A stretch of DNA of 64,000 nucleotides from Candidatus Omnitrophota bacterium (GTDB lineage: Bacteria > Omnitrophota > Gorgyraeia > Zapsychrales > Fredricksoniimonadaceae): the NCBI GenBank assembly GCA_028865345.1, contig JAGWKL010000002.1:128665-192664 (forward strand). Direction: 5' to 3'. A program made the translations under genes and the position numbers. Each line of letters opens with the position of its first letter. Positions within the stretch are counted from its first letter, which is position 1. Positions 7,789 through 58,295 of the stretch are shown here, piece by piece. Under the pieces are notes generated by a model. It was given only the letters and a program-made list of their open reading frames with translations, ran no database searches and was not told where the DNA came from.

Positions 7789-7845
7789 AAGCACCTCCTT
7801 CAACCATCTGCCATTTGTACCACAATCCGATGGGGACGGCAACGA

Positions 7846-8535: not shown

Positions 8536-8539
8536 GGTT

Positions 8540-10342: not shown

Positions 10343-10374
10343 ATTCCCTATTTCTTCGTTTTTCGTAAAGGGGT

Positions 10375-12254: not shown

Positions 12255-13255
12255 GGAATTTTCAAGAATACAGTATTGTTTAGAATGATTTCCAGGGCCA
12301 GCAGCACCATGGCCCCATCTAAAAAGAACCAAAACATCGGTTGGTACATCTTATAGCCTTTTTCCCGGATTTTGGATTTTTCCATTCGGTTGATCCGGGC
12401 ATAAATCCGCCGCAGGGAGCCCGTGTCCGCCGCACGGAAATACTCGCCCCCGGTCATGGCGGCGATCTTCTTAAGTGTTCCCTCATCCAAATCAAACTGT
12501 GCCTCCTCATAATGGGTGTTGCCGAATGCGTCGGTCACCGGAAAAGGCACAATTCCCGTTGTCCCGGCGCCTATCGTGTAGATTTTTACACCCAAGGCCT
12601 GGGCGGCACGGGCCGCGGTCAAAGGGCTGATAGAGCCGGAATTGTTGACCCCGTCGGTCAAAAGCACGATGACCTTGGATTTGGCTTTGCTGTCCTTCAA
12701 GCGCAACAAAGACGTGGCAATCCCGGAACCTATGGCGGTCGAATCCTGGATAACACCGATACGGATGGCCCTGAGATTTTCCAACAGCCAATCATGGTCC
12801 ATGGTCAAGGGACAGACCGTATAGGCCTGTGTACCGAATACAACCAATCCTATACGGTCATTCGGACGCTCTTTAATAAATTTCTCCACCGTCTTTTTAA
12901 TAATATCCAAACGGCTGATCCGATGTCCGTTGACCTTATAATCCATGGCCGACATACTCCCCGAAACATCCAGGGTCAGGACAATATCGATGCCTTGGCC
13001 TTTGAGATTAGATACCGCCAAAAGTTTTCTGGGGCCGGCCAGCGCAACCAACAGTAGGACCAAAACCAAAATCCTTAATGCCCAGGGAAGAAAGCTCCAT
13101 TTCACGCGCCACGTGACCGGGACTGCGCTCATGAAGGACAACGACGAAAATCTTAAAGAAGCCCCTTCCCGCCGCCGGCGCTCATACCATAAGGCAGCCA
13201 GCAGTAACGGGACCACGACCAAGACCAATGGCGTTTTAAATTCGGGGATCACCAT
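12251..13255 (-). CDS. batA: vWA-domain protein BatA-like
   Basis: TLDVSGSM MIDAS motif and N-terminal TM helices. Confidence 0.8.
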   Translation of the reverse strand: MVIPEFKTPLVLVVVPLLLAALWYERRRREGASLRFSSLSFMSAVPVTWRVKWSFLPWALRILVLVLLLVALAGPRKLLAVSNLKGQGIDIVLTLDVSGSMSAMDYKVNGHRISRLDIIKKTVEKFIKERPNDRIGLVVFGTQAYTVCPLTMDHDWLLENLRAIRIGVIQDSTAIGSGIATSLLRLKDSKAKSKVIVLLTDGVNNSGSISPLTAARAAQALGVKIYTIGAGTTGIVPFPVTDAFGNTHYEEAQFDLDEGTLKKIAAMTGGEYFRAADTGSLRRIYARINRMEKSKIREKGYKMYQPMFWFFLDGAMVLLALEIILNNTVFLKIP

Positions 13256-13275
13256 TCCCTGTTCCTTCGACTTCG

Positions 13276-13779
13276 TTAAGTCGTTTTTGTATCCTCAACC
13301 AACTTCCTTGCAAGATCAAAATTTCTTTCCGCCTCCTTGATGGTGGGGGCGTATTGGGCGAACTTGACCATGTCACAGGAATTCAGGAATTCTTTTAACG
13401 CGGCTTTCTGGTCCTCATTGAGATGGCCGCTTATTTTCAATGAGTATAAAAACTCTTCCGTGGACATATGCGGGGCGCGGACATTAAACCTATTTTCCAT
13501 ATAACGGCGCGCGATGTCCGCCACCCGTGTAAAGAATTCCTTAAAAAGCCCCTTGTCCAATAAATTCTCCCGCTGCAAAGCTTCCAGCTGTTGGTAAGCT
13601 TTCTGCCATGCGGGTAGTTCAGGTGCCGGCGGCACAACAGACTTTCGGGGAGAATTCTTAAAATAACGAAGGAAAAAATAAACTCCGCAAGCAACAACAA
13701 GCAGCGCCAGCAGAAGCCACAACAGCCACCAAAAATCAGGCAAACCAACGGGGGGCCTGACATCTCTGATATCATTCAT
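13276..13779 (-). CDS. DUF4381-like small membrane protein of Bat/MoxR operons
   Basis: 167 aa with a single N-terminal TM (FWWLLWLLLALLVVACGV). It sits between the DUF58 and batA genes, as in canonical operons. Confidence 0.6.
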   Translation of the reverse strand: MNDIRDVRPPVGLPDFWWLLWLLLALLVVACGVYFFLRYFKNSPRKSVVPPAPELPAWQKAYQQLEALQRENLLDKGLFKEFFTRVADIARRYMENRFNVRAPHMSTEEFLYSLKISGHLNEDQKAALKEFLNSCDMVKFAQYAPTIKEAERNFDLARKLVEDTKTT

Positions 13780-13781
13780 AA

Positions 13782-14672
13782 TTATCTGCTCAAACGCCGG
13801 CGCCTTTGGGCAAAGAAGCCTGCCAGGGCCTTGGTATACGGCACATCCGTGGAAATATCAATATGGTCCATGCCAATGATATCGAACAGGCGGTTGCGTT
13901 CTTTGATCCTGTCCAAAGCTTTTGTATGGTAGACCTTGCGTAAAACATCGTGAGAAGTATCAACGACCATTTTGGCGCCAGATTCAGCGTCCTCCAGTTC
14001 GATGAGCCCGCAATCGGGCAAATCGACTTCTCGGGGATCTGTTAGGCTGATGGCGATCAAATCATGGTGCTGATTGGCAACGCGCATGGATTTACGCAAA
14101 AACCCCGGATTGGGATCCAAAAAATCGGAAATAATGAAAACCGTTGACCTACGACGGACCACCTTTGTCAGGTGTTCCAACACCAGCGGCAAGTTGGTGG
14201 CCTTGGCCTGCGGCTTGAAATAAAGGATCTCACGGACCACCCTTAGCACATGGGTTTTGCCTTTCTTAGGCGGAATAAAAAGCTCCGGCCCGTCTGTGAA
14301 CATCAAAAGCCCGACCTTGTCATTATTGCGGATGGCGGCAAAGGCCAGCACCGCGGCGATTTCGGCGGCCAATTTATTTTTCATTTGATTGGTCGAGGCA
14401 AAATGCACTGATGCCGAGGCGTCCACCAGAATCATGACGGTCAACTCGCGCTCTTCCACATATTTCTTGACGTGGGGCGCTCCGGTGCGCGCGGTGACGT
14501 TCCAGTCGATGGAACGGATGTCATCGCCGGGCTGATACTCGCGCACTTCGTCGAACTCCATGCCGCGCCCCTTGAACACGCTGTGGTACGCGCCTGCAAA
14601 CACATCCGTGACCAGGCGGTTGGTCGTAATGTCGATGCGTAGGATCTTTTCAAGGATTTCTTTAGGTATCAT
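13782..14672 (-). CDS. DUF58-domain protein (MoxR partner)
   Basis: Canonical DUF58 N-terminal signature (FKGRGMEFDEVREYQPGDDIRSIDWNVTAR). Confidence 0.85.
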   Translation of the reverse strand: MIPKEILEKILRIDITTNRLVTDVFAGAYHSVFKGRGMEFDEVREYQPGDDIRSIDWNVTARTGAPHVKKYVEERELTVMILVDASASVHFASTNQMKNKLAAEIAAVLAFAAIRNNDKVGLLMFTDGPELFIPPKKGKTHVLRVVREILYFKPQAKATNLPLVLEHLTKVVRRRSTVFIISDFLDPNPGFLRKSMRVANQHHDLIAISLTDPREVDLPDCGLIELEDAESGAKMVVDTSHDVLRKVYHTKALDRIKERNRLFDIIGMDHIDISTDVPYTKALAGFFAQRRRRLSR

Positions 14673-15664
14673 GGCACTTCAACTTCATCCAATATCCGTT
14701 TAACCAGGTCCTCCGGTGTTTTGCCTTCGGCCTCAGCTTCGTAACTGGGAATGACCCGGTGACGCAAAACATCCATGCCGATCGATTTGACATCCTGCGG
14801 GGTCACAAATCCCCTGCCCTGAATAAACGCATGCGCGCGACCCGCCAGCGCCAAATTGATCGTGGCCCTGGGGCTTGCGCCATACAGGATAAGCCCTTTG
14901 AGATCGTCGAGTTTATACCTTTCCGGATTACGGGTGGCCTCGACGATCCGGACAATGTAATCCTCTATCTTTTCGTCCATGTAAATTTCATCCACGACCG
15001 ACCGCAGACGGACAATGTCCGCGGGGGCGGCCACGGCCTGCACGCCTATGGACGGACCTGTTCTGCCCATGCGTTTGAGGATCTTGAGTTCTTCGTCCAT
15101 GGCCGGATACGTGATCTTCACCTTGAGCATGAAACGGTCCACCTGGGCTTCCGGCAAAGGATAGGTCCCTTCCTGTTCAATGGGATTTTGGGTGGCCAGG
15201 ACCAAAAACGGGTCATCCAGTTTCAGGGTCTCTTCGCCGATCGTCACCTGCCGCTCCTGCATGGCTTCAAGGAGCGCGCTTTGCACCTTGGCCGGCGCGC
15301 GGTTGATCTCATCGGCCAAAATGATATTGGCAAAAACCGGCCCCTTTTTGACATTGAAATTCCCTGTACGCGCATCAAAAATAAGCGTACCCGTCAAATC
15401 CGCGGGAAGCATATCCGGAGTAAATTGCAGGCGATGGAATTTGGCCCGGATCGTCGCGGAGAGCGTCTTGACTGCCGTAGTCTTGGCCAAGCCCGGCACT
15501 CCTTCGACCAGGACATGGCCATTGGCCAGAATGCCTATCAACAGACGGTCTATCAACACGCTTTGACCGACAATTACCTTTGAAGTTTCAAAACGAATCG
15601 CATCAATGAGTCCTGATTCTTTTTTGACCTTATCATTGATGACGCTGATATCTGCAAGAGCCAT
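14669..15664 (-). CDS. moxR: MoxR-family AAA+ ATPase
   Basis: Walker A motif (GVPGLAKT) and a MoxR-like Walker B/sensor region. The start is preceded by an AGGAGG RBS. Confidence 0.9.
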   Translation of the reverse strand: MALADISVINDKVKKESGLIDAIRFETSKVIVGQSVLIDRLLIGILANGHVLVEGVPGLAKTTAVKTLSATIRAKFHRLQFTPDMLPADLTGTLIFDARTGNFNVKKGPVFANIILADEINRAPAKVQSALLEAMQERQVTIGEETLKLDDPFLVLATQNPIEQEGTYPLPEAQVDRFMLKVKITYPAMDEELKILKRMGRTGPSIGVQAVAAPADIVRLRSVVDEIYMDEKIEDYIVRIVEATRNPERYKLDDLKGLILYGASPRATINLALAGRAHAFIQGRGFVTPQDVKSIGMDVLRHRVIPSYEAEAEGKTPEDLVKRILDEVEVP

Positions 15665-19066: not shown

Positions 19067-22000
19067 TTAACTCAAAAAAACATCGATACGATCAACAGCC
19101 CCCTGCCGGACATCCCGGGCATAAGGGGCGTTTAAAGTACTGCCATCGAACTCCACCCGGCGGCGGTCAGGATAGGTCAACACGATCTTTTGCGCGCTGA
19201 CGCCCTGATTTCCATAAGTATCTTTCATTTGGGGGTTATGATACGTAATCATGGTCTTACCGAACAACTTAAAAGCATAGGTGTGTGCCGCAAACGGGCC
19301 CTTGGCTTTCCGGGTGAATAACCACGACGGCAACAAGGGCCTAAAGGTGAGCGCCAGCCTGCCGTGTTTATCCAGGACAAAAGGCCTGGTGCCCATGTTC
19401 ATGATAAGCCACATATGCAAAAACTCAGCTGTGCTGCCTGAAAGCCTGGCCACAAAACCCTGACCGTGCAGGTCCTTATCTTCATGGGCTGAAGAAACGA
19501 TAAAAGAAGAATTCTGCAGGATGCTGCGGCCATAAACCTGCGGATCCAAGAACGGGACCAGGGCTTCGCGAATCTCTGCGAAGAGTTCTTCCGCCAGGCC
19601 GCTGCGAAGGAGCTCGAGATAATATTTATATTCCATATGGAGCCATATGGACCCGTTCTCAAGCCATCCGGCAGGAAAAATACGGGTACGGCCGATCTCG
19701 TCGGGTTCTTTGGACAAGTCCGCATTGACCTTGTAAGCCCGAAGCGCACGGTCATACAAGGGGCTCGAACGGACCGCTTTATAAACGGCTTTCGCCTCGG
19801 GAAAGCCGTTGCCCGCCCTCATAGCATGCACAAAACCCTCTAAAAATAAAGGCAGATCATGGCGCCTGAAGGTCTTGGCACGGACATGCTGGCCATGGTG
19901 TGATTTATCCAAAAGATCGTATTCAATGACTTCATGGGTAAAATAAGTGGCGAAAAGGCCGTTGTCGTACCGGGATTTGGTTGCGGCCATGCTGCACCTT
20001 TCCATGATACCATCCAGGAATTTCTTGATTTCACCGATGGACAAAGACCTTTCCTTTCCATCGATCCCGTAACGGACGGTTTGACGGAAATGCTCTTTGA
20101 GGTCAGTGGCCTTTTGCCAGTATTTTAAAGGATCGGCTTCCGTAGACAGAACGTGGATGAGCCCCTGTATAAAATCCGCCAATTCCTGGAACACCTCGAC
20201 GGTAGTTTGATCGTCCAATCTTGATTGCCGTATGGCCTCTTTGACAAAAACAGCAAACCGTTTGAGCTCAAAAGTTTCGGAAATCGACGAGCCCAGCAAG
20301 CCGGGCAAGCCATTAAGGGCGTCATACCAATTGGGTTTATTGGCCTCCATTTCGATCCCGATGCCGCTGGGATCAAGACTTGCGGCTTTATTGGCCAACA
20401 GACAAATCAATTTGACCAAAAGAATGGTCGTATATACTTCACCCTGGCCGTTGGCAGCCCTTAATTTATACCCTTTGGCCCTGGCCTTCACCTCTTTATC
20501 GTGCTCGGCCAGGGAATGGTATTGCCTCACCCCGACAGGAGTCAAAACCAGGCGCGCGTCCCTCGGCAGCACATAAAAATCGTTCAAAAAGAAATGAAAC
20601 ACTTTCTTTTCCCAGAAGATCTCTCTTAAATTTTCCGGGTAAAGCCTTAAGTAACTTTCAATAAGGTCCAGATTATAGGTCCAGTGGTCGGTCCAAAAAC
20701 CTTCACCCGGTTCCACAGATTCATGTTTAACGCAAGCCCCCAGGACCTTTGTCAGGAAATCAACGGGCTTGGCCTTAATAGGGACTTCCCGTAATATCAA
20801 TTTCAACAGGTCTCCCGGCATGAAACCTTTTTTAAGCATCTCTTTGATCTTGTCCGCTCCCTGGACAATACCGAATGCGTTCAACAACCCATGGACCATC
20901 CCCTCATCCTTAATGACAAAAAAGGTGCCCTTGATGATCAACGGATTGTATCCGTCGGCCTGGATCAAATTCAAAAAATCGATGAGACTGCTGTCCTTAA
21001 CGTCCCTATTAAACCAGATATCGTTGCGGCGGTTCTGGTTGACGTCGCGGTAGTTGCCGTTGCCCTGGGACAGGAAGGTGGGGGCCAGCATGAAGAAATT
21101 GTAATCGCGCTCCAGGTCTCCGTGCTTGCGCCCGTAAACATTGAAGACGCAAGGTCCCTGCGCGCTTTGCAGGGTGACAGGCAGACCGCCGCGCAAGACA
21201 TTGTCCATAAAGTTCTGACCGCAATACTGGTTGAATTCATCAGAGGAACTGTGGGTAAAACAATGGTCCCTGATCCCGTCAATGATCTGCCGGTTAAGCC
21301 CGGCCTTGGTTTCTATAAACTTAGCGGCCGTAGCTTTTTTGACCACTTTTTTCAACTCCGTCAGATCGTGGGCAAATCCGACGAGGCTCGCGAAAGAATG
21401 CCTCTTGCCCCCCGCCAATGAAAAACGGCAGACGCTCATCGCCGACGGCGTGCGGTTGGATGTTTCCTGGAGGGCCGGCAGTAAAAAATTCTTTTGGGTA
21501 ATGAAATTCTCTGGCACCAGGAAATCGCTGGCGGCGCCAAAGACAACGGACGCCTCCACCACCACATCCAAAAGTTTGGCCGTCGACTCATCAAAGGCAA
21601 AATAAAAATTACCCTCTTTAATGGGGGTAACCTGCGGGGTGTCAGCCACCTCTACTTTTAGCTGATAAAAAGGCGCTTTATTGCCGACATTTTGCACCTT
21701 TGACCAGGCCTCCACCGTACGGCTCATGTTTTTGGCAAGCCAATCCTTAAGACCATAGGGATTGATAACAGGCAGGCCGTCCACACAACTGAAATCCACC
21801 CTTCTGCGGCCTATATTCTCGAAAGTCACACGGCGCACCAGGGCCGCAAAAGGCTCCTGTGGCATAGTGAAGTAATTGACAACCGTCTTGATCCCCAAGG
21901 TGTTGTTGACCTCTTCAATGGTCAGGTCATGGGCGGTGATCAGCATGCGTTGACGGATCTTATAAGGCGAAACCAGACTGTTGTCAAAAGGCTCATAAAA

Positions 22001-22279
22001 CCGCTGCGTGCCGCCGGATCCCACTTTCAAGAAAGTCCTGAAGCCCCGGATGGAACATATCCGGGGGGCTTTATTGGCCGGATAGAATTCCATAATGGCC
22101 CTGTCTTTGGATTCGATGCCGAAAGAGCAGATGGCCTGGGCCCGGTTGACATAAAAGGCCCACATGGGGATCCCGTACAACCCCGCAACGCCTGGAAAGA
22201 AATCCGAAAACAATTTGGCGTGCTGGTAGTCTTCAATGACAAAAGCGCCGCTTGCGTCCAAATAATACGGCTTATTCAT
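19067..22279 (-). CDS. Large conserved protein, putative (alpha/alpha)6-barrel glycoside phosphorylase/hydrolase-like
   Basis: About 1,070 aa with no signal peptide. Contains a WxDxLN-type motif (NWYDALNG) reminiscent of GH94/GH65 catalytic-acid regions. The start is MNKPYYLD, preceded by a GGAGAGAGGGA RBS. The functional call is tentative. Confidence 0.75.
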   Translation of the reverse strand: MNKPYYLDASGAFVIEDYQHAKLFSDFFPGVAGLYGIPMWAFYVNRAQAICSFGIESKDRAIMEFYPANKAPRICSIRGFRTFLKVGSGGTQRFYEPFDNSLVSPYKIRQRMLITAHDLTIEEVNNTLGIKTVVNYFTMPQEPFAALVRRVTFENIGRRRVDFSCVDGLPVINPYGLKDWLAKNMSRTVEAWSKVQNVGNKAPFYQLKVEVADTPQVTPIKEGNFYFAFDESTAKLLDVVVEASVVFGAASDFLVPENFITQKNFLLPALQETSNRTPSAMSVCRFSLAGGKRHSFASLVGFAHDLTELKKVVKKATAAKFIETKAGLNRQIIDGIRDHCFTHSSSDEFNQYCGQNFMDNVLRGGLPVTLQSAQGPCVFNVYGRKHGDLERDYNFFMLAPTFLSQGNGNYRDVNQNRRNDIWFNRDVKDSSLIDFLNLIQADGYNPLIIKGTFFVIKDEGMVHGLLNAFGIVQGADKIKEMLKKGFMPGDLLKLILREVPIKAKPVDFLTKVLGACVKHESVEPGEGFWTDHWTYNLDLIESYLRLYPENLREIFWEKKVFHFFLNDFYVLPRDARLVLTPVGVRQYHSLAEHDKEVKARAKGYKLRAANGQGEVYTTILLVKLICLLANKAASLDPSGIGIEMEANKPNWYDALNGLPGLLGSSISETFELKRFAVFVKEAIRQSRLDDQTTVEVFQELADFIQGLIHVLSTEADPLKYWQKATDLKEHFRQTVRYGIDGKERSLSIGEIKKFLDGIMERCSMAATKSRYDNGLFATYFTHEVIEYDLLDKSHHGQHVRAKTFRRHDLPLFLEGFVHAMRAGNGFPEAKAVYKAVRSSPLYDRALRAYKVNADLSKEPDEIGRTRIFPAGWLENGSIWLHMEYKYYLELLRSGLAEELFAEIREALVPFLDPQVYGRSILQNSSFIVSSAHEDKDLHGQGFVARLSGSTAEFLHMWLIMNMGTRPFVLDKHGRLALTFRPLLPSWLFTRKAKGPFAAHTYAFKLFGKTMITYHNPQMKDTYGNQGVSAQKIVLTYPDRRRVEFDGSTLNAPYARDVRQGAVDRIDVFLS

Positions 22280-23096
22280 ACAAAGTCCCTCTCTCCATTC
22301 TTCCCCCCTCAAACCTGAAACGCCTGAATAAATTATAATAACCTGAGAATTTAAACCACAAAATCAACCCTGAATACCTGTCATCCGTATTATTCATATG
22401 GATGCGTTTAAGCTCGTAGAAATCCCTGTCAAACCTGTCCTTGCCCCTGTTGGTTGTGACAGCGGCCTTAAATCCCGCCTGCGCCACCAGGCGCTTGATG
22501 TTCTCGGTAAAACCCCCATCCGGATAGCAAAAATAATCGATAGGGTGCCCTAAATGTCCCTCAATGATCCTTTTACTGCCAGCTATCTCGTTTTCCTGCT
22601 GGGCCAGGGTCAAACGGGGTAAATACGCGTGGTGCCGCGTGTGCGCCCCAAAAGAAATGTCGTGTTTTTCCATTTCTTTGATCTCGTCCCATGTAAGGCA
22701 GCCCGGTTTGCCCACCCAATCGGACACCAAAAATATCGTCGCAGGGAAACCGTACTTTTTGAGGATGGGAAAGGCGTATTTATAATTGTCCTCATAACCG
22801 TCATCCACTGTTATGACAATGGTATTCCGGGAGAACACCTGTCCTTTCTTCAGGCCCGTGACCAGATCATCTAAACTGATCACCTGAAAGCCGTGGCGTT
22901 TCATAAAATTCAACTGGTAATCAAAAGACTTTGAACTGACGTCGTTGAGGCGCCACTTGACTCCGGAAGGTATCCCCACATGATGGTACATCAGGACAGG
23001 GACAACATAGCGGTCACGCAGCCAAAAAGTAAATCCAATGGCTGAAATCACGATGACGGCGAGCAAGGCCAGAAAGATATTTCTTAAACTCCTCAT
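22272..23096 (-). CDS. Polysaccharide deacetylase (NodB-homology) family protein, membrane-anchored
   Basis: N-terminal TM segment. NodB motifs (TVDDGYEDNY; HTRHH). Confidence 0.85.
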   Translation of the reverse strand: MRSLRNIFLALLAVIVISAIGFTFWLRDRYVVPVLMYHHVGIPSGVKWRLNDVSSKSFDYQLNFMKRHGFQVISLDDLVTGLKKGQVFSRNTIVITVDDGYEDNYKYAFPILKKYGFPATIFLVSDWVGKPGCLTWDEIKEMEKHDISFGAHTRHHAYLPRLTLAQQENEIAGSKRIIEGHLGHPIDYFCYPDGGFTENIKRLVAQAGFKAAVTTNRGKDRFDRDFYELKRIHMNNTDDRYSGLILWFKFSGYYNLFRRFRFEGGRMERGTLYE

Positions 23097-36079: not shown

Positions 36080-36454
36080 TCATTTCTGGTGCGTATACAC
36101 AATCAATTGCCCTGTGAATCTCAACAATGCATCGCCGTAATAATAGTAACGGTAAGACATGGTCTTGGCATTGATAATGGCATCAGCCCCTTTATGCCTG
36201 GCGATTTTCTGCGCCTGACTGGTTAGCATCGCGGGAGTTACCCCATCACTGGCAAGGCCCTCAACGGAAACCTTACCGATCACATAATAAGGACGGACGG
36301 TTCCCATGGTTTGAGATGCCGGGTAAACATCAACGGTGTAATATTTGTCCTTGGGAGCAAACTGCTGATATGTATAACTGACATAACTCGAACTGGTAGC
36401 GCACCCTGCCAAAACCAAGAAAGCCAAGCCTAAGATTAATAATTTCGTTTTCAT
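36080..36454 (-). CDS. BhsA/YdgH (DUF1471)-like lipoprotein with Tyr-rich C-terminus
   Basis: Lipobox LAGC. Pattern YxVIGKVSVEG...DGVTPAML...KGADAIIN typical of the YdgH/BhsA fold. Paralog of 57826..58281. Confidence 0.6.
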   Translation of the reverse strand: MKTKLLILGLAFLVLAGCATSSSYVSYTYQQFAPKDKYYTVDVYPASQTMGTVRPYYVIGKVSVEGLASDGVTPAMLTSQAQKIARHKGADAIINAKTMSYRYYYYGDALLRFTGQLIVYTHQK

Positions 36455-36460
36455 AAGGGG

Positions 36461-36994
36461 TTATTTCCCGTACATTGTTTCAAGCTGGGACACTTTAGGG
36501 AACCGGGCATAAAATTCACCCTGAGGCCCTACAAAGCCGCTGCCTGACTTTTTGAGAACGACCGGCGTATATCCCCCCTTGCCGTTGGGAACATTGACGG
36601 TGATTGTATTATCCGAAGCCTGCGGCGCCTCTGCAGCTTGAGCAGGCGCACCGGCAGGTGTTGCCACGACCTGGTAACCATACGGGCCATACGTATAATA
36701 CACGCCGTTATTGACATAATATGTAACTCCGTTGATGACAACCGGTTGAAAGGCCGGAGATTCAACCGCATAGGCAGCAGGATAGCTAGCAACAGGATAG
36801 TAATAAGGAGCATAATAGGGGCCATAATAAGGATAATCGTCATAATCGTAGCCGTAATAATAAGGAGAGGACCAGCCATAACTAAAAGAAACATAGGAGT
36901 GCCTATGCCAATATGCATCAGAAGTTGTTGGCTTGACGATACATAAGCCAAAGAAGAACATGAAGACAAGCAAAATTTTCAATGTCATTTTCAT
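36461..36994 (-). CDS. Secreted Tyr-rich low-complexity protein with conserved ~50-aa C-terminal domain
   Basis: Signal peptide, then a YYYGYDYDDYPYYGPYY region. The C-terminus TITVNVPNGKGGYTPVVLKKSGSGFVGPQGEFY...QLETMYGK is about 60 % identical to the C-terminus of 43959..44405. The ATG start at M20 has a GGAGG RBS. Confidence 0.65.
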   Translation of the reverse strand: MKMTLKILLVFMFFFGLCIVKPTTSDAYWHRHSYVSFSYGWSSPYYYGYDYDDYPYYGPYYAPYYYPVASYPAAYAVESPAFQPVVINGVTYYVNNGVYYTYGPYGYQVVATPAGAPAQAAEAPQASDNTITVNVPNGKGGYTPVVLKKSGSGFVGPQGEFYARFPKVSQLETMYGK

Positions 36995-37129: not shown

Positions 37130-37774
37130 TCATTCAGCTTTCCTTAAAATCAATTTTCGGCTCGCCAGGTCCAAGGTAAAATGAAATTTGCTTAAGAATG
37201 ACATGCCTAACAGGCCATCCCTGATTTCCTTATTATCTTCAAGTAAAACGACAGCAGGAACATCCCGGGCCTGCATGTCCCCCAACTTCACGCTGTCCAA
37301 CGACACTGCCGCGGCCTTATATTTGCCGTTAAGTACTTCCACATACCCTATTTGAGACCGGCTCAGATCAAGGCCCAGTTGGCGGGCAAACGGCCGGCTC
37401 AATAAAATCACCGGAGAACCCGTATCCACAACCAGGGAAGCATGGATTTTACCGTTAATGAATGCCTCCGCCGCCAGATGCCCCTGGGCATCGGGACTAA
37501 GGGGAATTACAATTCCCTCGATGTCACGGCGCTTCTGTTCCTCCTCCATGTTGGTATCATCGCTCAACTGTTCCTTGGCCTCCAGGATCTTTGAAAAAAC
37601 ACCCGAAGCTTCAGCCTGGGCCAGCGCCTGGCGGTCTGACTTGATGATATCACTTTCTTCATTGGCCATGGACCTGGAACACAAAAACAGACCAACCACT
37701 AGCAGCAAAACCCCTCCCCGCAACAACTGGGCATTACGAAACCGAAGCAAGCCCCGCTCAGGCCTATCGCCCAT
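37130..37774 (-). CDS. Membrane-anchored retropepsin-like (clan AA) aspartic protease
   Basis: N-terminal TM segment. Catalytic LVVDTGSPVILLS (DTG) motif and a C-terminal fold like the TIGR02281-type family. Its start lies 8 nt after the vWA stop. Confidence 0.75.
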   Translation of the reverse strand: MGDRPERGLLRFRNAQLLRGGVLLLVVGLFLCSRSMANEESDIIKSDRQALAQAEASGVFSKILEAKEQLSDDTNMEEEQKRRDIEGIVIPLSPDAQGHLAAEAFINGKIHASLVVDTGSPVILLSRPFARQLGLDLSRSQIGYVEVLNGKYKAAAVSLDSVKLGDMQARDVPAVVLLEDNKEIRDGLLGMSFLSKFHFTLDLASRKLILRKAE

Positions 37775-39491
37775 GACTTTTGCCTTTCTGGCTTTCTTTA
37801 AACGCAACTTTGGGGGCCGCTAAAGGATGCGAAGGTTCATTCTCGCTGAAAGAATAGGGAGTGATGATATGGAACTGCCCGCAGATTTTATGAATGGCAT
37901 CAATCAAGGCCCCATTGTCCTGATCGTATTTCAATTCACTGATCAAATAGTACACCTTATGGAACGCCCAGTCCCGTGCGATATCTTTACCGCCCAACGG
38001 CGCATTCTTAAGGGAGCCGCTGACAATGAACTCTTTATTATCATCGGCCGTGTCTCCCCTGATTTGAACGGCAAACTGATCTTCATTAGTGTATTTGCCG
38101 TAAATTACGAATTGCGACCCTTTAAAAAAATCCGGCATGGTCCGGGGAAAAATTTCCCGTTCATTCAGACCGCTGACATAATAGCGCACGTTCAACAAAA
38201 GCGGGTCTTTGATCTCGTCGTACAATCCGGCCAGATCCCGGCCCATAAAATACTGCCGGCCCACAACCGTTGACCAACCCCGGTTTTTAAAAGCAATAAA
38301 ATCCAGCATATAAGGATCCACGGCTGCGCCGCCGCCAAAAGTAAAAATACTGACCTTGTTATGATTGATACGGGAAATCTCGTTTATGACATGCCGGTCA
38401 TTCACAAGACCGGCAGTAGGAATGCCGTCGCTGATCAAAACCCTGTAGGACGGCACAAAAGGATGCGGCAACGTGACGCTTGTGCGCAGGGCGTCATAAA
38501 TGTCGGTCGTGGACCATGATTGCAGGCTGTGAAGAAAATCAACAGCCTTCCTGATATTGCCGGCGTCAACTTTAAGGGAAACAGGACTAAACGGTATGGA
38601 TCTATTGTTAAAAGCAAGGATATTAAAACGGTCATCGGGATTAAGGTGATGCAAGCTGTAGGCGATCCCCTCTTCCACCTGGGTCAAACGCGGCATTCCG
38701 ATGCTGCCTGAGGCGTCCACCAGGAAAATGATCTCCTTGGGGATGACGGGAAAATTAATGGTGGCATCCTTGACCTTTACAACGAGCTTGAAATATTTTT
38801 GCCCTGAAGGGGACTGGTACCTGAAGAGCTGATAAGTCAGTGCCGTACCCAAATCGGTGAGCCTGGATTTAGGCGCCTGGCCCGTGGGGCTTCTTTTCAT
38901 CATCTGGAATTCATTGTGCATATTGGCGGATCTACGGGACGTGACCAGGGCCGCCTTGGCCGGAAAAGAGCTCTTATCAAGAAAATTCCTGGAGATGTCC
39001 TCACCGGCAATAAGCACCGGCGAACCGGAGGCAAAGTTCTCCGTCGGCACTTCACCCAATTCAACCAGGTTCTCCCTCAGCGAACGGCGTACCCGTCTGG
39101 TGGTGACGATATCATTGAAATCCGATTTTCTTAAGGTCTGCGCTTGCTTGACCGATGAAGGGATGAGCGCCTGCTTTCCTTTCTGAATGGATGTCTCAAT
39201 ATTGTTCTTCACCGTTTCTTCGGATTCTATGGCCGGCTTGCTGATCAGATTTTCCAGAAAAGGATTGTCGGGTTTAGGTGATTTGCGCAAAGTCTCGGTG
39301 GCGAATTTGACCTTCGGGGTGCCCATCTGTTCTTCTTTGGCGATCGTGACATGAAAAAACATTTCCGGTTTTTCGGGGAACTCAACAGCAGGCAGCATTT
39401 TGGCAAAATAACTCCATATTAAAAACCCCGCGTGGAGGGAAAGGGAAATCCCAAGAGCGATCAATATCCTTCGCTGGACAATAACACTCAT
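37764..39491 (-). CDS. Membrane-anchored vWA-domain protein
   Basis: N-terminal TM segment. vWA MIDAS residues (FLVDASGSIG ... STTDIYDAL). The start ATG overlaps the TPR gene stop as ATGA. Confidence 0.8.
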   Translation of the reverse strand: MSVIVQRRILIALGISLSLHAGFLIWSYFAKMLPAVEFPEKPEMFFHVTIAKEEQMGTPKVKFATETLRKSPKPDNPFLENLISKPAIESEETVKNNIETSIQKGKQALIPSSVKQAQTLRKSDFNDIVTTRRVRRSLRENLVELGEVPTENFASGSPVLIAGEDISRNFLDKSSFPAKAALVTSRRSANMHNEFQMMKRSPTGQAPKSRLTDLGTALTYQLFRYQSPSGQKYFKLVVKVKDATINFPVIPKEIIFLVDASGSIGMPRLTQVEEGIAYSLHHLNPDDRFNILAFNNRSIPFSPVSLKVDAGNIRKAVDFLHSLQSWSTTDIYDALRTSVTLPHPFVPSYRVLISDGIPTAGLVNDRHVINEISRINHNKVSIFTFGGGAAVDPYMLDFIAFKNRGWSTVVGRQYFMGRDLAGLYDEIKDPLLLNVRYYVSGLNEREIFPRTMPDFFKGSQFVIYGKYTNEDQFAVQIRGDTADDNKEFIVSGSLKNAPLGGKDIARDWAFHKVYYLISELKYDQDNGALIDAIHKICGQFHIITPYSFSENEPSHPLAAPKVAFKESQKGKSHGR

Positions 39492-41848
39492 TTTAAAAGA
39501 CCGATCCTTTGCCGGGCATAGGACGCAGCCCTGCTGTTTTTATATTTATCCAGTATCTCCTCATAGGCTTTCAGGGCGTCGGGACGGCGCTTTTGGCGCT
39601 CAAAAATCCCGGCTGCCCTTAATAGACTCTCGGGGCAGTAATAATCGTCATCGTAAACCGTGGCCACCAGGAGATAATATTTGGCCGCCTCGTCCAGTTT
39701 CCCCTGGGCGCGATCGGCATTGGCCATCTCAAAGGCGGCATGCGCCGTGACTGTATAATCATCGGGATTTTCGTCCAAAGCCTTTTGGAATTCCTTTTCG
39801 GCCTCATCATACCTTTGCTGGGTCTCCAGGCATAAACCGTGGCCGATATGGGCGCTTCCGGTAAAGGCATTCTTAACACTTGAAGCTTCGACCGGATCGT
39901 AATACTTGGCCGCCTCATCGCAGCGCCCCAGCCCTCTCAAGGCTTCGGCTTTAAAATAATAAATTTCCGTCATGTCCAAAGGACCCGCTCCCCGGCTTCC
40001 AAGGCCGGAAAAACGTTTTTCCGCGTCGGCCGCCACACGAAGGACATCATCATATTTTTGTTCCTTCAGATATTGATTGCAAACCCACACATAGGTCGCC
40101 AGCTGCAGGTCATTAGGGCCCGGCAGGTTCATCAGGCGGTCAAAAAAATTCCTCGCCTGGTCGAAATTTTTCATGCCCAGATAAATGATCGCCATATTCT
40201 TGACGGCAGCCGGATAAAATTTTCCTCCTTCCTGGTTTTGGTCCACGTGCGCGTAGGCGGCCAGCGCCTGGCTGCTGTTGCCTGAAAGCTGAAGGTTATA
40301 TCCCAACAAGAAATACGCGGTATTTGCTTTTTGAGGCGAAGCTGAAGCCAAATACCCCTGCAGCAATTTGACCGCCTCGGCAGGCTGGTTGTCCTTGGCC
40401 AGGCTGTCCGCCAGGATAAACAAAACATTGCTATATTGCCGGGCCTTGGGAAATGTTTTTAAATATTCCCGGGCCCGATCGATCGCATCCCGGATATCGC
40501 CTGTCCGAACATCCATCATGATCGCGTTATATAATGCTTCCCCCTTTAAATCAGGCTGGCTTTCAAGATCATAATATTTCAAAAATAAAGCCTGGGCCTC
40601 TTTCAGGCGGCCCGCTCCCTCGCGGCAATGGGCCTCGCCCAATAGCGCCGCCTTATTAAAACGGGAACCAGGGAAATTCTGATAAACATTTTCAAAAAAA
40701 TTAAATGCTTTATCATATTCCCCCAGGCCGAAACAGCATTGGGCTTTCAGGAAAAATGTCTCGTCGGCATTCCCGGTATCGGCGGAAGAATACGCGTTCA
40801 ACAATGCCAGGGCGTCCTTATAATCTTTGTTACTGATAAAAATACCGGCTTTCTTGATAAAAATCCGGGCAGTCTCCCATGGTTTTAATCCCGGGAAGGC
40901 CAGCATGCGGTCCAGAAGTTTATTGGCCCGGTCATATTGTTTTAATTCAATATAGGCCATGACCGCCGCCAGGTGGACGTTAAAGTAAGATTCATCGTCC
41001 TTGATCCGGGACGCATATTTATGGTACTCGTCGAGCAATTGACCGTACTGCCCCAGATTGAAATAAGCCAAAAGCAGGTTGGCCAAGGCATCCTCATTGA
41101 GCCCCAGGGCCGGATACCCTTTGATCACCCGGTTGAATTCCTTGATGGCGCCGTCATATTGACCCGACAAAAACAGGACTGCGGCGATCCTATAATGCAA
41201 TTGGCCTTTAAGGGAGTCGTTCTCTGCCAGCGCCAAAGATTTGCTATACGCATCGAGGGCCTCCTGATCATGCCCCCCCTGAACCTCTATCTTGCCTATT
41301 TCCCTGAACGCATCGGCGGTATAGCCGGATGCCCCCTGGACTGCTGAAGCCTTTTGGAAAAAAGTAAGGGCTGAAGACCTATCTCCCTTATCTAAATAAG
41401 CGCGGGCCGTATAAAAATCAAACGATTGCAAAATCTGCCCCTTTAACTGTTTTCGATCAACGGACTCAAGCTCTTTTAAAGCCTCATCATATTGCTTTTG
41501 CTCGATGTCGATCTGCCCTAAACGCAAGATACTCACCGGTAATTTTCCGGAATGAGGGTAAAGTTGATTAAACTGCCTGAAAGCATCAACGGCCTTGTTA
41601 AATTCCCGGGACAAGAAATAACCCTCGCCCAGGGAAAGGTAGGCGTCCTGCAAAGACGGGCTGTGGGGATTTTCGGCAATGAACTTCCGGTATTGTGTAA
41701 TGGCCATCCCGTACATGCCGCGCGCAAGCAAACCCTGGGCAAAATCCAGCTCTTCCGCTTCCTGCACGCTGTCCTGGGCGTGCACAGGCACAGGGAACGC
41801 GCAACACACTGTGAAAATACCTGCGATAACAACGGTCCTGAAATTCAT
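39488..41848 (-). CDS. Large secreted TPR-repeat protein
   Basis: Signal peptide, then more than 15 TPR-like repeats over 786 aa. Its start lies 1 nt after the exbD stop. Confidence 0.8.
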   Translation of the reverse strand: MNFRTVVIAGIFTVCCAFPVPVHAQDSVQEAEELDFAQGLLARGMYGMAITQYRKFIAENPHSPSLQDAYLSLGEGYFLSREFNKAVDAFRQFNQLYPHSGKLPVSILRLGQIDIEQKQYDEALKELESVDRKQLKGQILQSFDFYTARAYLDKGDRSSALTFFQKASAVQGASGYTADAFREIGKIEVQGGHDQEALDAYSKSLALAENDSLKGQLHYRIAAVLFLSGQYDGAIKEFNRVIKGYPALGLNEDALANLLLAYFNLGQYGQLLDEYHKYASRIKDDESYFNVHLAAVMAYIELKQYDRANKLLDRMLAFPGLKPWETARIFIKKAGIFISNKDYKDALALLNAYSSADTGNADETFFLKAQCCFGLGEYDKAFNFFENVYQNFPGSRFNKAALLGEAHCREGAGRLKEAQALFLKYYDLESQPDLKGEALYNAIMMDVRTGDIRDAIDRAREYLKTFPKARQYSNVLFILADSLAKDNQPAEAVKLLQGYLASASPQKANTAYFLLGYNLQLSGNSSQALAAYAHVDQNQEGGKFYPAAVKNMAIIYLGMKNFDQARNFFDRLMNLPGPNDLQLATYVWVCNQYLKEQKYDDVLRVAADAEKRFSGLGSRGAGPLDMTEIYYFKAEALRGLGRCDEAAKYYDPVEASSVKNAFTGSAHIGHGLCLETQQRYDEAEKEFQKALDENPDDYTVTAHAAFEMANADRAQGKLDEAAKYYLLVATVYDDDYYCPESLLRAAGIFERQKRRPDALKAYEEILDKYKNSRAASYARQRIGLLK

Positions 41849-41849
41849 T

Positions 41850-42272
41850 TTAAGGGTTCTCGTCCTTGATCGCTGAAAAAGAAATGTCCGTCAAATGGGA
41901 ATACCCGCAGGCATCCAGGGCCTGGATCACGTATTTATGGTAGGTCAGTGCGTCCGCGCGGATAATGACCTGCTGGTTCGGGAATAATTTGGACACATGG
42001 GCCAGCATAACCGTCAGTCCGTCCGGAGTATATTGCTTCTGGTTGACGATAAAACGGCCGTCCCTGGTGATATTGATGACGATCTTGCCGGCGCTTTGGG
42101 CGGACTGGACCGCTGTTTTGGATTTGGGAAGCGTCATATTGACCTGCGCTTCCATCTGGTTATAAACGGCAATGACCATAAAAAACATCAGGGCCCAGAA
42201 AGCAATGTCCACCAGAGGGGCCAGTTGGACGATCGGCCTTTGCCGTTGATATTCAGAGACGTCGAATTTCAT
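41850..42272 (-). CDS. exbD: ExbD/TolR biopolymer transport protein
   Basis: 140 aa. ExbD N-terminal pattern with one TM (LAPLVDIAFWALMFFMV). Confidence 0.85.
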   Translation of the reverse strand: MKFDVSEYQRQRPIVQLAPLVDIAFWALMFFMVIAVYNQMEAQVNMTLPKSKTAVQSAQSAGKIVINITRDGRFIVNQKQYTPDGLTVMLAHVSKLFPNQQVIIRADALTYHKYVIQALDACGYSHLTDISFSAIKDENP

Positions 42273-42293
42273 AAGCTTCTCTCCTCGTAATAT

Positions 42294-43040
42294 TTATCGG
42301 CCGTGGATCTTCTTGATGATGTCCGAGCTGTAAATCTCCACCATATTGGTGATCTGCTGGACATGGCCGCGGAAATAGGAATACGCCATCAACGCCGGGA
42401 TGGCGACGATGAGCCCGGAGGCCGTACAGACCATGGCCTTAGAGATGCCCGCAGCCAAAAGGGTCGTTTTAAGGCTGGCTGACTGCAAAGGCACCGCACG
42501 GAAGGCCTGGATCAATCCCAGCACAGTTCCCAACAGGCCCAAAAGGGGCGCCACAGCGACGATGTCGGAAAGATAACTGATGTTTTGCCAGAGATTGGTC
42601 AATTCAACGCGGGCGGTGTTCTCCATGGCTTCGCGGGCCAAATCATCATGGTGCTGCTTTCGTTCAAGGCCGGCCAGGACAATCTTGGCAATGATGGTGC
42701 TGTTTTCCTGGCGGCAGATGGTTTGGGCGCCGTTAAAATCCCTGCTGTTGAGCTTGTGCATCACCTCATCATATAGCCCGCGCGGGACAAGCTTATTGAC
42801 ATTAAGCATCATGACGTCATAAACGATAATGGCCACGGCCGCAACCGAGAGGAAACCTATGCCGATCATGGTTAAGCCTCCGGCCTTCAGCGTCTGCCAC
42901 AGCGTCATGTCCCCGGGCATATTAGCCCCTCCTGCGCCGGATCCGGACACTTGAGCATAGGCACAATGATGTCCGTTAAGTAAAAACAAAAGAACGAACA
43001 TCCCCAACATCCAAACCGGCATATTTTTCGCATTGATCAT
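42294..43040 (-). CDS. exbB: MotA/TolQ/ExbB proton-channel protein
   Basis: 248 aa with three TM helices. C-terminal TolQ/ExbB-family core. Confidence 0.85.
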   Translation of the reverse strand: MINAKNMPVWMLGMFVLLFLLNGHHCAYAQVSGSGAGGANMPGDMTLWQTLKAGGLTMIGIGFLSVAAVAIIVYDVMMLNVNKLVPRGLYDEVMHKLNSRDFNGAQTICRQENSTIIAKIVLAGLERKQHHDDLAREAMENTARVELTNLWQNISYLSDIVAVAPLLGLLGTVLGLIQAFRAVPLQSASLKTTLLAAGISKAMVCTASGLIVAIPALMAYSYFRGHVQQITNMVEIYSSDIIKKIHGR

Positions 43041-43163: not shown

Positions 43164-43853
43164 ATGCGAAAGTACTTGTTTATTTTATGTCTTTTGGTGC
43201 CGGTCTTGTGCCTGGAAGCCCGGGCCCAAGAGCAAACGCCCGAGCAGCTTTTACAAACCGTGCGCACCTCCCTGGTGGAAGTAAGGGCCGTAGCCACCAA
43301 GACCATCAGAGAAAATAACGGTGATGAAATAAGAGGAACCTACCATGCCACAGGTTCCGGCGTCATCCTTGACACCTATGGAAACATCGTCACCAATACC
43401 CATATCATCGCCAACGCCCAACGCATCTATGTCGGCCTCAGCGACGGCACCGTGCTCGAGGCAAAACGTGTATATTCCAGCGACGCTGACTTCAGCTTTA
43501 TCAAGGTCGATCCGCCCTACCCGCTTGATCCCATCAGCTGGGCTGATTCTTCACAAGCCGGGACAGGCACACCCATCATTGCGCTGACCAATAGCGACAA
43601 CGGCCAAGAGCACATCCTCGGCGGTGAAATCATCAAGCTTATCAATGGCGTTGATTCAGGCAGTGTGGAAATGTTTGAATTAAACCTTCCCCTTGTCCCC
43701 GGGGACAGCGGCGGCCCGCTTCTCGACAACGAAGGGCATTTGTTAGGACTGATCATGGGCAGGAAAACAAGCCAAGACGATAAAAGTTATGCCATAGCGT
43801 CCAATAAAATCCATCAAGAATACATGAACTACCAGCAAAATCTACCCAATTAA
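43164..43853 (+). CDS. Secreted trypsin-like (S1) serine protease, no PDZ domain
   Basis: Signal peptide. Catalytic His (TNTHIIANA) and Ser (GDSGGPL) motifs. Divergent from exbB. Confidence 0.8.
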   Translation: MRKYLFILCLLVPVLCLEARAQEQTPEQLLQTVRTSLVEVRAVATKTIRENNGDEIRGTYHATGSGVILDTYGNIVTNTHIIANAQRIYVGLSDGTVLEAKRVYSSDADFSFIKVDPPYPLDPISWADSSQAGTGTPIIALTNSDNGQEHILGGEIIKLINGVDSGSVEMFELNLPLVPGDSGGPLLDNEGHLLGLIMGRKTSQDDKSYAIASNKIHQEYMNYQQNLPN

Positions 43854-43958: not shown

Positions 43959-44405
43959 TTATCTGCCGTACATGGCCTGCAGCTGTTCGGTTGAAGGGAT
44001 CTGGTCGTAATATTCGCCCTGCGGGCCTATATAACCGTTCCCCGATCTTTTGAGCACCACCGCCGTATATCCTCCGGTGGAATTAGGGATATTGACCGTG
44101 ACCGTGTCCCCGGAATAGGTGATGTTGGTCACAGGAGCCGGTTGGCTGACAACTACCGGCGCCGGCTGTTGGACAACAGGTTTTTGGATTTGAGAACCCA
44201 CCGCGGCCCCGGTGACGGCGCCCAACGCGCCTCCGATCAAAGCCCCTGCCCCTGTGTCATGGCTTTGATGGCCTATAATACCCCCGGCCAGCATGCCCAG
44301 AGCGCCTCCGGCGGCGGCACCTTCGCCTTCATTATTATAGGGATTGCAGCCGGCAATAAAAGCGGCGAAAACAAACACTGTCAGGACATAAAAACATTTT
44401 TTCAT
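43959..44405 (-). CDS. Glycine-zipper lipoprotein with conserved ~50-aa C-terminal domain (paralogous to 36461..36994 C-terminus)
   Basis: Lipobox FIAGC. Gly-zipper region (GALGMLAGGIIG...GALIGGALGAVTGAAVG). The C-terminus TVTVNIPNSTGGYTAVVLKRSGNGYIGPQGEYY...QLQAMYGR matches the other protein. GGGGAG RBS before MKKCF. Confidence 0.65.
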   Translation of the reverse strand: MKKCFYVLTVFVFAAFIAGCNPYNNEGEGAAAGGALGMLAGGIIGHQSHDTGAGALIGGALGAVTGAAVGSQIQKPVVQQPAPVVVSQPAPVTNITYSGDTVTVNIPNSTGGYTAVVLKRSGNGYIGPQGEYYDQIPSTEQLQAMYGR

Positions 44406-45001: not shown

Positions 45002-45232
45002 TTAAAACTCTTTGGTTAAAATGTTATAGATCGGTTGTGATCTCAGCCAAAGCGCGGCGGATTTTGCCGGATGTTGGGCGAGATACTGCTTGGCGTAACT
45101 ATTGATCCACTCCCTGCAAGCTCTTTCAAAGCCGATATCCTTCCCGGATTTTTCGCTTTCAATCCACTTATACCTGTTGATCTCATCCAGAACATCCTTG
45201 TCTTTCAACAGCTCTGTACTTGTGATGGACAT
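45002..45232 (-). CDS. Small hypothetical protein
   Basis: 76 aa with no TM segment and a conserved-looking charged/aromatic pattern. Family not recognised. Confidence 0.45.
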   Translation of the reverse strand: MSITSTELLKDKDVLDEINRYKWIESEKSGKDIGFERACREWINSYAKQYLAQHPAKSAALWLRSQPIYNILTKEF

Positions 45233-57825: not shown

Positions 57826-58266
57826 TTAGATTTTTTGCCCGCTGTGTTCAAAAACAACCAAATTCCCCGTGAATTCCAGAAGAGTACTTTCATAGGGCAC
57901 ATAGGTCGTGGGGTGGTAGTAATACCACCCGTAATAACCGGGAACAACATATGTCCCCATATAGGGAACGGCACGGGTGACGGCGTCGATGACGGCATCG
58001 GCGCCTTTCTTTCTGGCGACCCTGACCGCCTCCTGCGACAGCAGGCCCGGCGTAACATCATTGGCGGCATCTCCCTGAATATCCACTTTCCCGATGACCT
58101 GATATGGCGGGGACACGGGAAGCTTATGGGACGGGGAATAAACCGGGATAAAATAATTCTCCGGTTTGGGAGGATAAGAATGATTGGTATAAGAAAAATA
58201 TCTTAGGCTTGTCGCGCAACCAGCCAAGCTCAGCACCGTCAAAATGACCAAAGAAATCTTTTTCAT
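57826..58266 (-). CDS. BhsA/YdgH (DUF1471)-like lipoprotein with Tyr-rich C-terminus (paralog of 36080..36454)
   Basis: Lipobox LAGC. YQVIGKVDIQG...DVTPGLL...KGADAVID. C-terminus LLEFTGNLVVFEH, versus LLRFTGQLIVYTH in the paralog. Confidence 0.6.
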   Translation of the reverse strand: MKKISLVILTVLSLAGCATSLRYFSYTNHSYPPKPENYFIPVYSPSHKLPVSPPYQVIGKVDIQGDAANDVTPGLLSQEAVRVARKKGADAVIDAVTRAVPYMGTYVVPGYYGWYYYHPTTYVPYESTLLEFTGNLVVFEHSGQKI

Positions 58267-58295
58267 TTTTGCCTCCTTCATGAAGCGTCTTGCGC

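Follow-up and report, generated by a model that had tools for sequence, protein, structure and literature searches.

What is the segment of about 50 residues that closes two otherwise dissimilar exported proteins in a Candidatus Omnitrophota genome? The stretch analysed here, called the window throughout, comprises 64,000 nucleotides of contig JAGWKL010000002.1 (GenBank assembly GCA_028865345.1), and an initial annotation of it had proposed that two of its products, protein 1 and protein 2, share a modular sorting, anchoring or recognition domain. We find that the shared segment, hereafter the module, represents a new family in a familiar class, the small modular envelope domains, and has no counterpart in the libraries searched. 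By analogy with that class, we propose that the module may be a tethered docking piece that fixes different carriers to a common envelope target, a reading to which we give a probability of roughly 45%. Anchoring or recognition would fit best among the three functions originally offered.

The likeness between the two proteins was confined to their C-termini. BLASTP aligned their last 51 residues with 30/51 identities (59%), 41/51 positives, no gaps and an E value of 1e-21, and gave no further significant similarity between the proteins outside this segment. The ungapped C-terminal identity of ~60% first reported therefore survived proper alignment, and the conserved core quoted with it, TVN.PN..GGYT.VVLK.SG.G..GPQGE.Y, was correct. 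The interval assigned to the protein 1 copy, 36461..36613, does hold the last 50 codons and, in addition, the stop, but the aligned domain extends one codon more (36464..36616). Copy 1 ends in ...MYGK and copy 2 in ...MYGR, followed directly by stop codons at 36461-36463 and 43959-43961, respectively. Searching the six frames of the whole window by tblastn with either segment recovered these two copies only, the next match having an E value of 0.098. At the DNA level the segments were 67% identical, with 76, 75 and 51% identity at codon positions 1, 2 and 3. The divergence of third positions, with the first and second kept, indicates purifying selection at the protein level and not a recent duplication or gene conversion.

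Structure prediction indicated that this segment folds on its own. A domain-only AlphaFold2 model, built with a 70-sequence alignment, reached a mean predicted local distance difference test score (pLDDT) of 85.3 and a predicted template modelling score (pTM) of 0.62, and consisted of three antiparallel strands followed by a C-terminal helix (beta-beta-beta-alpha). Predicted strands of copy 1 span residues 130-136, 142-150 and 153-155 of protein 1, and the helix residues 168-175. The loop between sheet and helix holds an almost invariant G-P-x-G-E-x-Y motif, and the amphipathic helix follows the pattern ...P-x-x-x-Q-L-x-x-x-Y-G in a sequence that is otherwise polar and beta-rich. Invariant residues were G, P, G, E, Y, P, L and Y, with no conserved His or Cys. 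In a model of full-length protein 1, the module (residues 130-175) had a pLDDT of 95-97 and repeated the secondary structure of the domain-only model, and the overall pTM was 0.34. This low value suggests that the parts of protein 1 have no fixed mutual orientation, and that the module is an independent bead on a flexible tether. According to these models, the shared segment is an autonomous extracytoplasmic domain of ~48 residues, carried on a disordered spacer rich in Pro, Ala and Val. It is also the most conserved part of its carriers: across syntenic orthologues, identity of the module and of the remainder was 75% versus 55% for protein 1, and 83% versus 77% for protein 2.

No family in the libraries searched accounted for the module. 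Neither 50-aa segment matched any family in Pfam-A or NCBIfam even at E≤10, and scans of 10 divergent multi-copy relatives, and of 70 diverse members one by one, against these libraries gave scattered sub-threshold noise (PEGA, CFSR, DUF1687) with no consistent family. Profiles of the module searched against all PDB sequences gave best E values of 0.26-0.36, none meaningful, and Foldseek of the module model against the PDB gave no significant match. Motif strings of the module had no match in a literature text search, where mentions of DUF6515 were merely incidental. Source annotations of relatives read 'hypothetical protein' or took their name from another part of the protein, as with the 'PXPV repeat protein' of a Planctomycetaceae metagenome-assembled genome (MAG). 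Across Pfam-A, NCBIfam and the PDB, the segment thus deserves its first description as novel.

An exhaustive hidden Markov model (HMM) search of 1.84 billion cluster representatives returned 989 representatives at E≤1e-3, of which 656 reached E≤1e-10. A pattern scan of genomes, taking one genome per species and keeping 74 loci, confirmed 255 copies, nearly all in Candidatus Omnitrophota or in other MAGs labelled as belonging to the Planctomycetes-Verrucomicrobia-Chlamydiae (PVC) group. The 74 loci derive almost wholly from Candidatus Omnitrophota MAGs. Thirteen of the assemblies bear the label 'uncultured Planctomycetales', and those of their loci with enough flanking sequence (L006, L011, L040, L051, L069) were syntenic with the window. 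Single MAGs labelled Kiritimatiellaeota, Lentisphaerae and Verrucomicrobiota also carried the module, and more divergent members came from Planctomycetaceae and Phycisphaerae. Fetched loci contained 91 module-bearing open reading frames (ORFs) in 49 assemblies, with at least up to five per assembly. The family is populous, PVC-centred and multi-copy. In one relative (L001), a 12-gene block around both proteins was kept in order, 11 of the 12 genes having 68-85% amino-acid identity to the window, in clear agreement with its Omnitrophota origin.

Architectures were counted among the 156 best representatives of the HMM search, and these established that the module is preferentially, not obligately, C-terminal. 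A single C-terminal copy was present in 119/156 representatives. Another 26 had 2-6 tandem copies with short variable linkers between them (six in P0009, five in P0010 and P0012), and in nine the module stood right behind the signal peptide, followed by 100-400 residues of TPR, WXXGXW repeats or low-complexity tails. Among Omnitrophota hosts the end of the module coincided with the stop codon in nearly all cases, and 53 of the 91 ORFs ended in Y-G-K. Regions partnered with the module were DUF6515, Gly-zipper, fusions of the two, PXPV, WXXGXW and TPR; the carriers that recurred were of two types, DUF6515-type proteins (166-250 aa) and Gly-zipper lipoproteins (148-159 aa). In a minimal form, an 89-aa protein from Phycisphaerae had a single module joined by 20 linker residues to a lipoprotein signal, and nothing more. 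This range of carriers, together with the tandem and stand-alone forms, upholds the view that a modular domain, and not duplication of whole genes, explains the likeness of the two window proteins.

The same carriers had been called unrelated, which holds for their sequences but not in the sense of independence: their genes are syntenic or adjacent in relatives, and in at least six loci one ORF combines a DUF6515 core, a Gly-zipper and a single module. These Rosetta-stone fusions (Table 1) imply that the two window carriers, though unlike in sequence, are functionally linked.

Two further features were seen among module proteins. In a divergent subtype ('TVWITNDNGSxTPVxL...GPxGEYYxxMPTEEQLKxxYG'), 3-6 tandem repeats follow PXPV or Pro-rich N-terminal regions; its members are P0009, P0010, P0012, P0016 and P0023, and one comes from a Planctomycetaceae MAG (MCE5341369.1). 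Long tracts rich in His and Gly or in His and Asp (HGHGHDGGHDGHGRNGGDHHHDGG) lie directly behind the signal peptide in hosts from six loci (L010, L020, L024, L034, L050, L056), and protein 1 has just a short HRH in place of such a tract. The His-rich composition of many module proteins is suggestive of metal binding.

The carriers in the window agreed with their first description as a Tyr-rich protein and a Gly-zipper lipoprotein. Protein 1 starts with a signal peptide and contains a Tyr-rich region, whereas protein 2 has a lipobox and a Pfam Gly-zipper. Protein 1 is a member of Pfam DUF6515 (29.4 bits, cut-off 24.9; E 9e-7), the match running over residues 31-128 and profile positions 14-102 of 179 and leaving the module uncovered. 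Its core shares with DUF6515 (PF20125) a four-stranded beta-meander and YY-x-x-G-x-YY motifs, whereas DUF6515 proteins elsewhere are mostly stand-alone proteins of ~120-149 aa that contain the core repeat twice and lack the module. Protein 2 passed both Gly-zipper_Omp (PF13488; 32.1 bits, cut-off 25) and Gly-zipper_YMGG (PF13441; 29.9 bits, cut-off 28.9) over residues ~25-75. A promoter and terminator scan gave candidates upstream of both module genes, but regional counts did not exceed shuffled expectation.

We propose that such a carrier would be kept in or near the outer membrane, either as a lipidated Gly-zipper protein (protein 2) or as a secreted Tyr-rich DUF6515 protein (protein 1). The disordered spacer would then cross the periplasm, and the module would bind a shared and conserved envelope target, so that diverse carriers would be held to one structure; the first candidate for that target would be the peptidoglycan layer. 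A small autonomous domain on a Pro-rich spacer, placed at either end, present in 1-6 copies and highly conserved, follows the pattern of modular envelope docking domains. LysM, SH3b/SH3_3 and SPOR domains likewise measure ~45-70 aa, act outside the cytoplasm at either end of many unrelated carriers, and occur in 1-6 tandem copies with variable linkers rich in Pro, Ser and Thr.

Two positional substitutions lead in the same direction. Protein 2 resembles YiaD-type lipoproteins (NF053611) in having a lipobox, a glycine-zipper hairpin and a linker to a small periplasmic C-terminal domain. The NCBIfam model YiaD_Gzip_OmpA matched only its N-terminal half (residues 10-108, profile positions 3-102 of 206), and at 42.8 bits against a cut-off of 175 protein 2 is not a member of that family. 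It lacks the OmpA-like peptidoglycan-binding domain and has the 50-aa module instead, which shows no similarity to OmpA_C; the partial match suggests that the module stands in the place of the OmpA-like domain. OmpA-like domains bind peptidoglycan. For protein 1, a search with the DUF6515 core identified three proteins of other lineages that end in an SH3_3 domain where protein 1 has the module, and SH3b domains commonly direct proteins to the cell wall. These two independent substitutions both point to envelope docking. Because, in other bacteria, OmpA-like and SH3b domains are found at this position on carriers of the same types, peptidoglycan would rank first among targets, although as the specific target it is a doubtful assignment.

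Several observations weigh against docking, and in particular against docking to the wall. No homology to known wall-binding modules (LysM, SH3_3, OmpA_C, SPOR, PG_binding) was detected in Pfam or NCBIfam, and hhalign of the module against the SH3_3/SH3b domain gave a probability of 2.5%, on which homology to SH3b was rejected. In contrast to LysM, SH3b and SPOR, with which it has no sequence or profile similarity, the module showed no fusion to a peptidoglycan hydrolase among the 150 visible representatives, and its predicted topology differs from both the beta-alpha-alpha-beta fold of LysM and the all-beta SH3 fold. A comparison with SlyB by hhalign gave a probability of 1.5% (E 0.033), a weak test since the template was a single sequence. 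The substitution by SH3_3 is based on three short, possibly truncated proteins. Simple docking does not explain the preference for the exact C-terminus, nor the Y-G-K ending, and the two module genes of the window have no envelope-stress neighbours. Carriage by phage lysins or plasmids was considered as a sign of wall binding and rejected: the module was not found in INPHARED (phage) or PLSDB (plasmid) records, and on the two IMG/VR contigs, classified as viral, that contain it (72 and 61 kb) the proteins are secreted, Gly/Tyr-rich and DUF6515-like, ending in the module, which is the usual DUF6515-type architecture and not that of a lysin.

An alternative that we consider somewhat unlikely, yet the best placed of those that compete with docking, is that the module mediates self- or hetero-association. 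Edge-to-edge pairing of beta-sheets would assemble DUF6515 and Gly-zipper proteins into oligomers or rings, as has been proposed for SlyB and YfgH, with no third component. Such a role would suit a module found on two types of carrier whose genes are syntenic or fused, with several paralogues per genome and natural arrays of 2-6 copies. Like SlyB, YfgH and OsmB, protein 2 is a lipoprotein of ~150 aa that combines a Gly-zipper with a C-terminal part rich in beta structure. For outer-membrane lipoproteins of the Gly-zipper type, ring formation is known or predicted, SlyB being one that forms rings, and the three E. coli proteins belong to stress regulons (bioRxiv 10.64898/2025.12.22.696046). Relatives of the module genes, too, lie in envelope-stress neighbourhoods. 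Moreover, hhalign set the first hairpin of the module in register with SlyB residues 111-133, in keeping with an idea of homology to the SlyB C-terminal beta-domain that had been formed by eye. That idea was abandoned, because at 1.5% probability the match is not significant; phmmer of protein 2 against the PDB did not find SlyB (7OJF/7OJG), which was also outside the Foldseek top 50, and in SlyB the beta-rich part lies on both sides of the zipper with no terminal helix. Homology between the module and SlyB lacks support. Against association, fusion proteins retain a single module and not two, contrary to what a role in joining the carriers would predict, and stand-alone lipoproteins with a single module exist.

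The genes around the module bear on a further alternative. When every ORF lying up to 3.5 kb from a module gene was clustered without bias, the recurrent neighbours were the 124-aa lipoprotein family (22 loci), TPR proteins (14), response regulators (13), RND pumps (12), membrane-fusion proteins (MFP; 12), LTXXQ/Metal_resist proteins (11), TolC-like proteins (10), ABC ATPases (10) and zf-HC2 anti-sigma factors (9). The LTXXQ neighbour is a CpxP/Spy/ZraP-like periplasmic protein with a His-rich tail and a match to Pfam Metal_resist. In ~25 loci, anti-sigma, LTXXQ/Metal_resist and TolC-MFP-RND or ABC genes lay beside module genes in the same direction. Two same-strand orders recurred: module gene, extracytoplasmic function (ECF) sigma factor, anti-sigma, LTXXQ, TolC and MFP; and anti-sigma, LTXXQ, module gene and lipoprotein. 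The ECF sigma gene was immediately upstream of the zf-HC2 anti-sigma gene in 5/9 loci examined. Together with the His/Gly-rich tracts, these recurrent sigma, LTXXQ and efflux neighbours point to an envelope-stress and efflux setting of the family. A recurrent same-strand cassette of ECF sigma, zf-HC2 and LTXXQ/Metal_resist, often continued by TolC-MFP-RND or TolC-MFP-ABC, accompanied DUF6515 genes that bear the module. In L054, L059, L061, L063 and L067 it lay ~500-2500 nt downstream of the module gene, and it was also seen in L016, L019, L023 and L030.

One could accordingly imagine the module as a stress-sensing, chaperone or metal-handling element of an ECF-sigma regulon, in which the module or its free C-terminus would contact the anti-sigma factor, LTXXQ or efflux parts and would have no anchoring role. 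Neighbourhood, strand and the tracts behind the signal peptide all favour such an element, as does the Metal_resist match of the LTXXQ neighbour. We nevertheless consider it improbable. Neither His nor Cys is conserved in the module, which leaves it without conserved metal ligands, both window genes lack neighbours of this type (a TolC-MFP-MFS set is ~7 kb away), and stand-alone forms, in Phycisphaerae and on one further contig, have unrelated neighbours and no recurring partner; adjacency may also reflect co-regulation only. For the carriers, a role in stress signalling or metal handling is possible.

Of the three functions first offered, sorting is the least likely. In that reading, which we regard as very unlikely, the module would be a C-terminal sorting or secretion signal for a dedicated export or attachment machinery, possibly removed afterwards, like the C-terminal domain (CTD) of the type IX secretion system (T9SS) or PEP-CTERM and sortase-type signals. 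The module shares with T9SS CTD and PEP-CTERM a strong bias to the very C-terminal end of exported proteins whose N-terminal parts are unrelated, as seen in the single C-terminal copies of most representatives, the coincidence with the stop codon and the terminal Y-G-K, and genes for a trypsin-like and a retropepsin-like protease lie nearby in the window. Unlike T9SS CTD, PEP-CTERM, LPXTG-type and GlyGly-CTERM signals, though, it is not obligately C-terminal, being internal, tandem or N-terminal in some mature proteins. It lacks the hydrophobic transmembrane helix and basic tail of sortase-type signals, and at E≤10 none of the sorting-signal models in NCBIfam or Pfam matched it. Targeting is already provided for in protein 2 and in the 89-aa stand-alone form, both being lipoproteins. 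Finally, no sorting enzyme recurs among the neighbours of module genes, and the two protease genes are kept in close relatives only.

That the segment is no functional domain, and that biased composition of both carriers produced a chance, low-complexity resemblance or a recent gene-conversion patch, can be dismissed given the ungapped E value of 1e-21, third codon positions at 51%, hundreds of homologues and a confident independent fold.

Table 1. Location of the two module proteins, their parts and other features (positions refer to the window unless a locus label is given).
Feature	Position	Strand	Details
Protein 1	36461..36994	-	177 aa; ORF translation agrees with the sequence quoted initially
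Protein 1 signal peptide	36914-36994	-	residues ~1-27; cleavage ...TSDA|YW; AlphaFold2 helix 2-19
Protein 1 Tyr-rich region	36764-36913	-	residues 28-77; predicted disordered, AlphaFold2 pLDDT <50
Protein 1 DUF6515 core	36668-36748	-	residues 83-109; predicted four-stranded beta-meander, AlphaFold2 pLDDT ~92
Protein 1 Ala/Pro-rich linker	36617-36667	-	residues 110-126; low AlphaFold2 confidence; module next
Module copy 1	36464..36616	-	protein 1 residues 127-177; BLASTP, HMM match reaching ORF end
Protein 2	43959..44405	-	148 aa; ORF translation agrees with the sequence quoted initially
Protein 2 lipoprotein signal	44346-44405	-	Cys20; lipobox FIAG|C read from sequence
Protein 2 glycine-zipper hairpin	44181-44321	-	residues 29-75; Pfam
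Protein 2 Pro/Val/Gln-rich linker	44115-44180	-	residues 76-97 (KPVVQQPAPVVVSQPAPV); module next
Module copy 2	43962..44114	-	protein 2 residues 98-148; BLASTP, HMM match
124-aa lipoprotein	36080..36454	-	starts 6 nt past the protein 1 stop; no Pfam match
ExbB-ExbD-TPR-VWA-retropepsin block	37130..43040	-	separates the two module genes
Retropepsin-like aspartic protease	37130-37807	-	Pfam; 44-nt overlap with the VWA ORF as called
Membrane-anchored VWA protein	37764-39491	-	Pfam
TPR protein	39488-41848	-	786 aa; Pfam
ExbD	41850-42272	-	Pfam
ExbB	42294-43040	-	Pfam
Trypsin-like serine protease	43164..43853	+	Pfam Trypsin_2, E 3e-20; convergent with protein 2; in 6 related loci
Second lipoprotein paralogue	57826-58281	-	amid unrelated membrane-protein ORFs
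BatD-domain protein	8540-10381	-	neighbours 7084-15664
1081-aa ORF	19067-22312	-	no Pfam family at E≤1e-5
76-aa ORF	45002-45232	-	weak partial DUF4032 match (E 0.0014)
Papain-family cysteine protease	60426-61169	-	Peptidase_C1
292-aa pilin-like protein	61223-62101	-	no Pfam match
DUF6515/Gly-zipper/module fusion ORFs	L014:1468-2389, L042:9244-10153, L035:9232-10150, L033:9211-10147, L044:5449-6256, L045:8858-9458		Rosetta-stone fusions
Module proteins on IMG/VR contigs	L079:3629-4156, L080:3443-4150		DUF6515-like

Highly conserved, multi-copy and easy to recognise, the module marks a set of envelope proteins, comprising Gly-zipper lipoproteins, DUF6515 proteins and the tandem-repeat proteins of Planctomycetota, and offers a handle by which this set can be defined. 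Omnitrophota are an uncultivated, widespread phylum with very small cells, and to our knowledge almost nothing is known of how their envelope is built. The regions covered by the module are at present blank in Pfam and InterPro, and the family provides the basis for a new domain model that would be worth a Pfam entry. A wider proposal is that the module, with a fold that would have no solved relative, is the first of a new PVC-specific class of domains binding peptidoglycan or another envelope polymer, which would staple both stress lipoproteins of the outer membrane and matrix proteins rich in Tyr to the wall as directed by an ECF-sigma envelope-stress regulon. We hold this as doubtful as the assignment of peptidoglycan itself. 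Were it true, the class would be used by both Omnitrophota and Planctomycetota, two groups with atypical envelopes that are little understood, and a wall-binding module would be a new tool and a new fold for its class; if the module does not bind the wall, it is one more well-delimited domain of unknown function. The finding overturns no current view and is not surprising in itself.

The 124-aa lipoprotein encoded next to protein 1 is the neighbour most often conserved beside module-bearing genes, which its orthologues follow directly on the downstream side in 22-23 loci. Its family, of 124-160 aa and with no Pfam assignment, is recognised by the motif ...YxVIGxVxxxG...ARxKGADAIIN..., and a second paralogue is encoded elsewhere in the window. 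The gene of the first copy is translationally coupled to that of protein 1.

Between the two module genes of the window lies the ExbB-ExbD-TPR-VWA-retropepsin block, which resembles an energised system of the TonB/Tol type with the VWA protein at the position of TonB. The arrangement, including this block, was kept in the close relatives L001, L011, L017, L018 and L040. Elsewhere, genes of the protein 1 type, the lipoprotein and the protein 2 type stood side by side without the block between them (L023, L030), or a gene of the protein 1 type directly adjoined one of the protein 2 type (L038). Since module genes are adjacent without it in these loci, the block has probably been inserted and is probably no partner, and since it is confined to close relatives, it is probably not part of the core function of the module. 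We therefore rejected it as a functional partner.

Some other genes of the window were also recorded. The BatD-domain protein lies in an apparent operon of the Bat/aerotolerance type, to judge from neighbouring VWA, TPR and MoxR-like ORFs, with BatD alone annotated. The 1081-aa ORF could not be placed in a Pfam family at the threshold given in Table 1. The 292-aa protein has an N-terminal motif like that of type IV pilins (...FSNRAITLIELIVATLL...) and is adjoined by the gene of a papain-family cysteine protease. The 76-aa ORF, with its weak match to DUF4032, lies beside a Pro_CA_2 gene, as it also does in L001.

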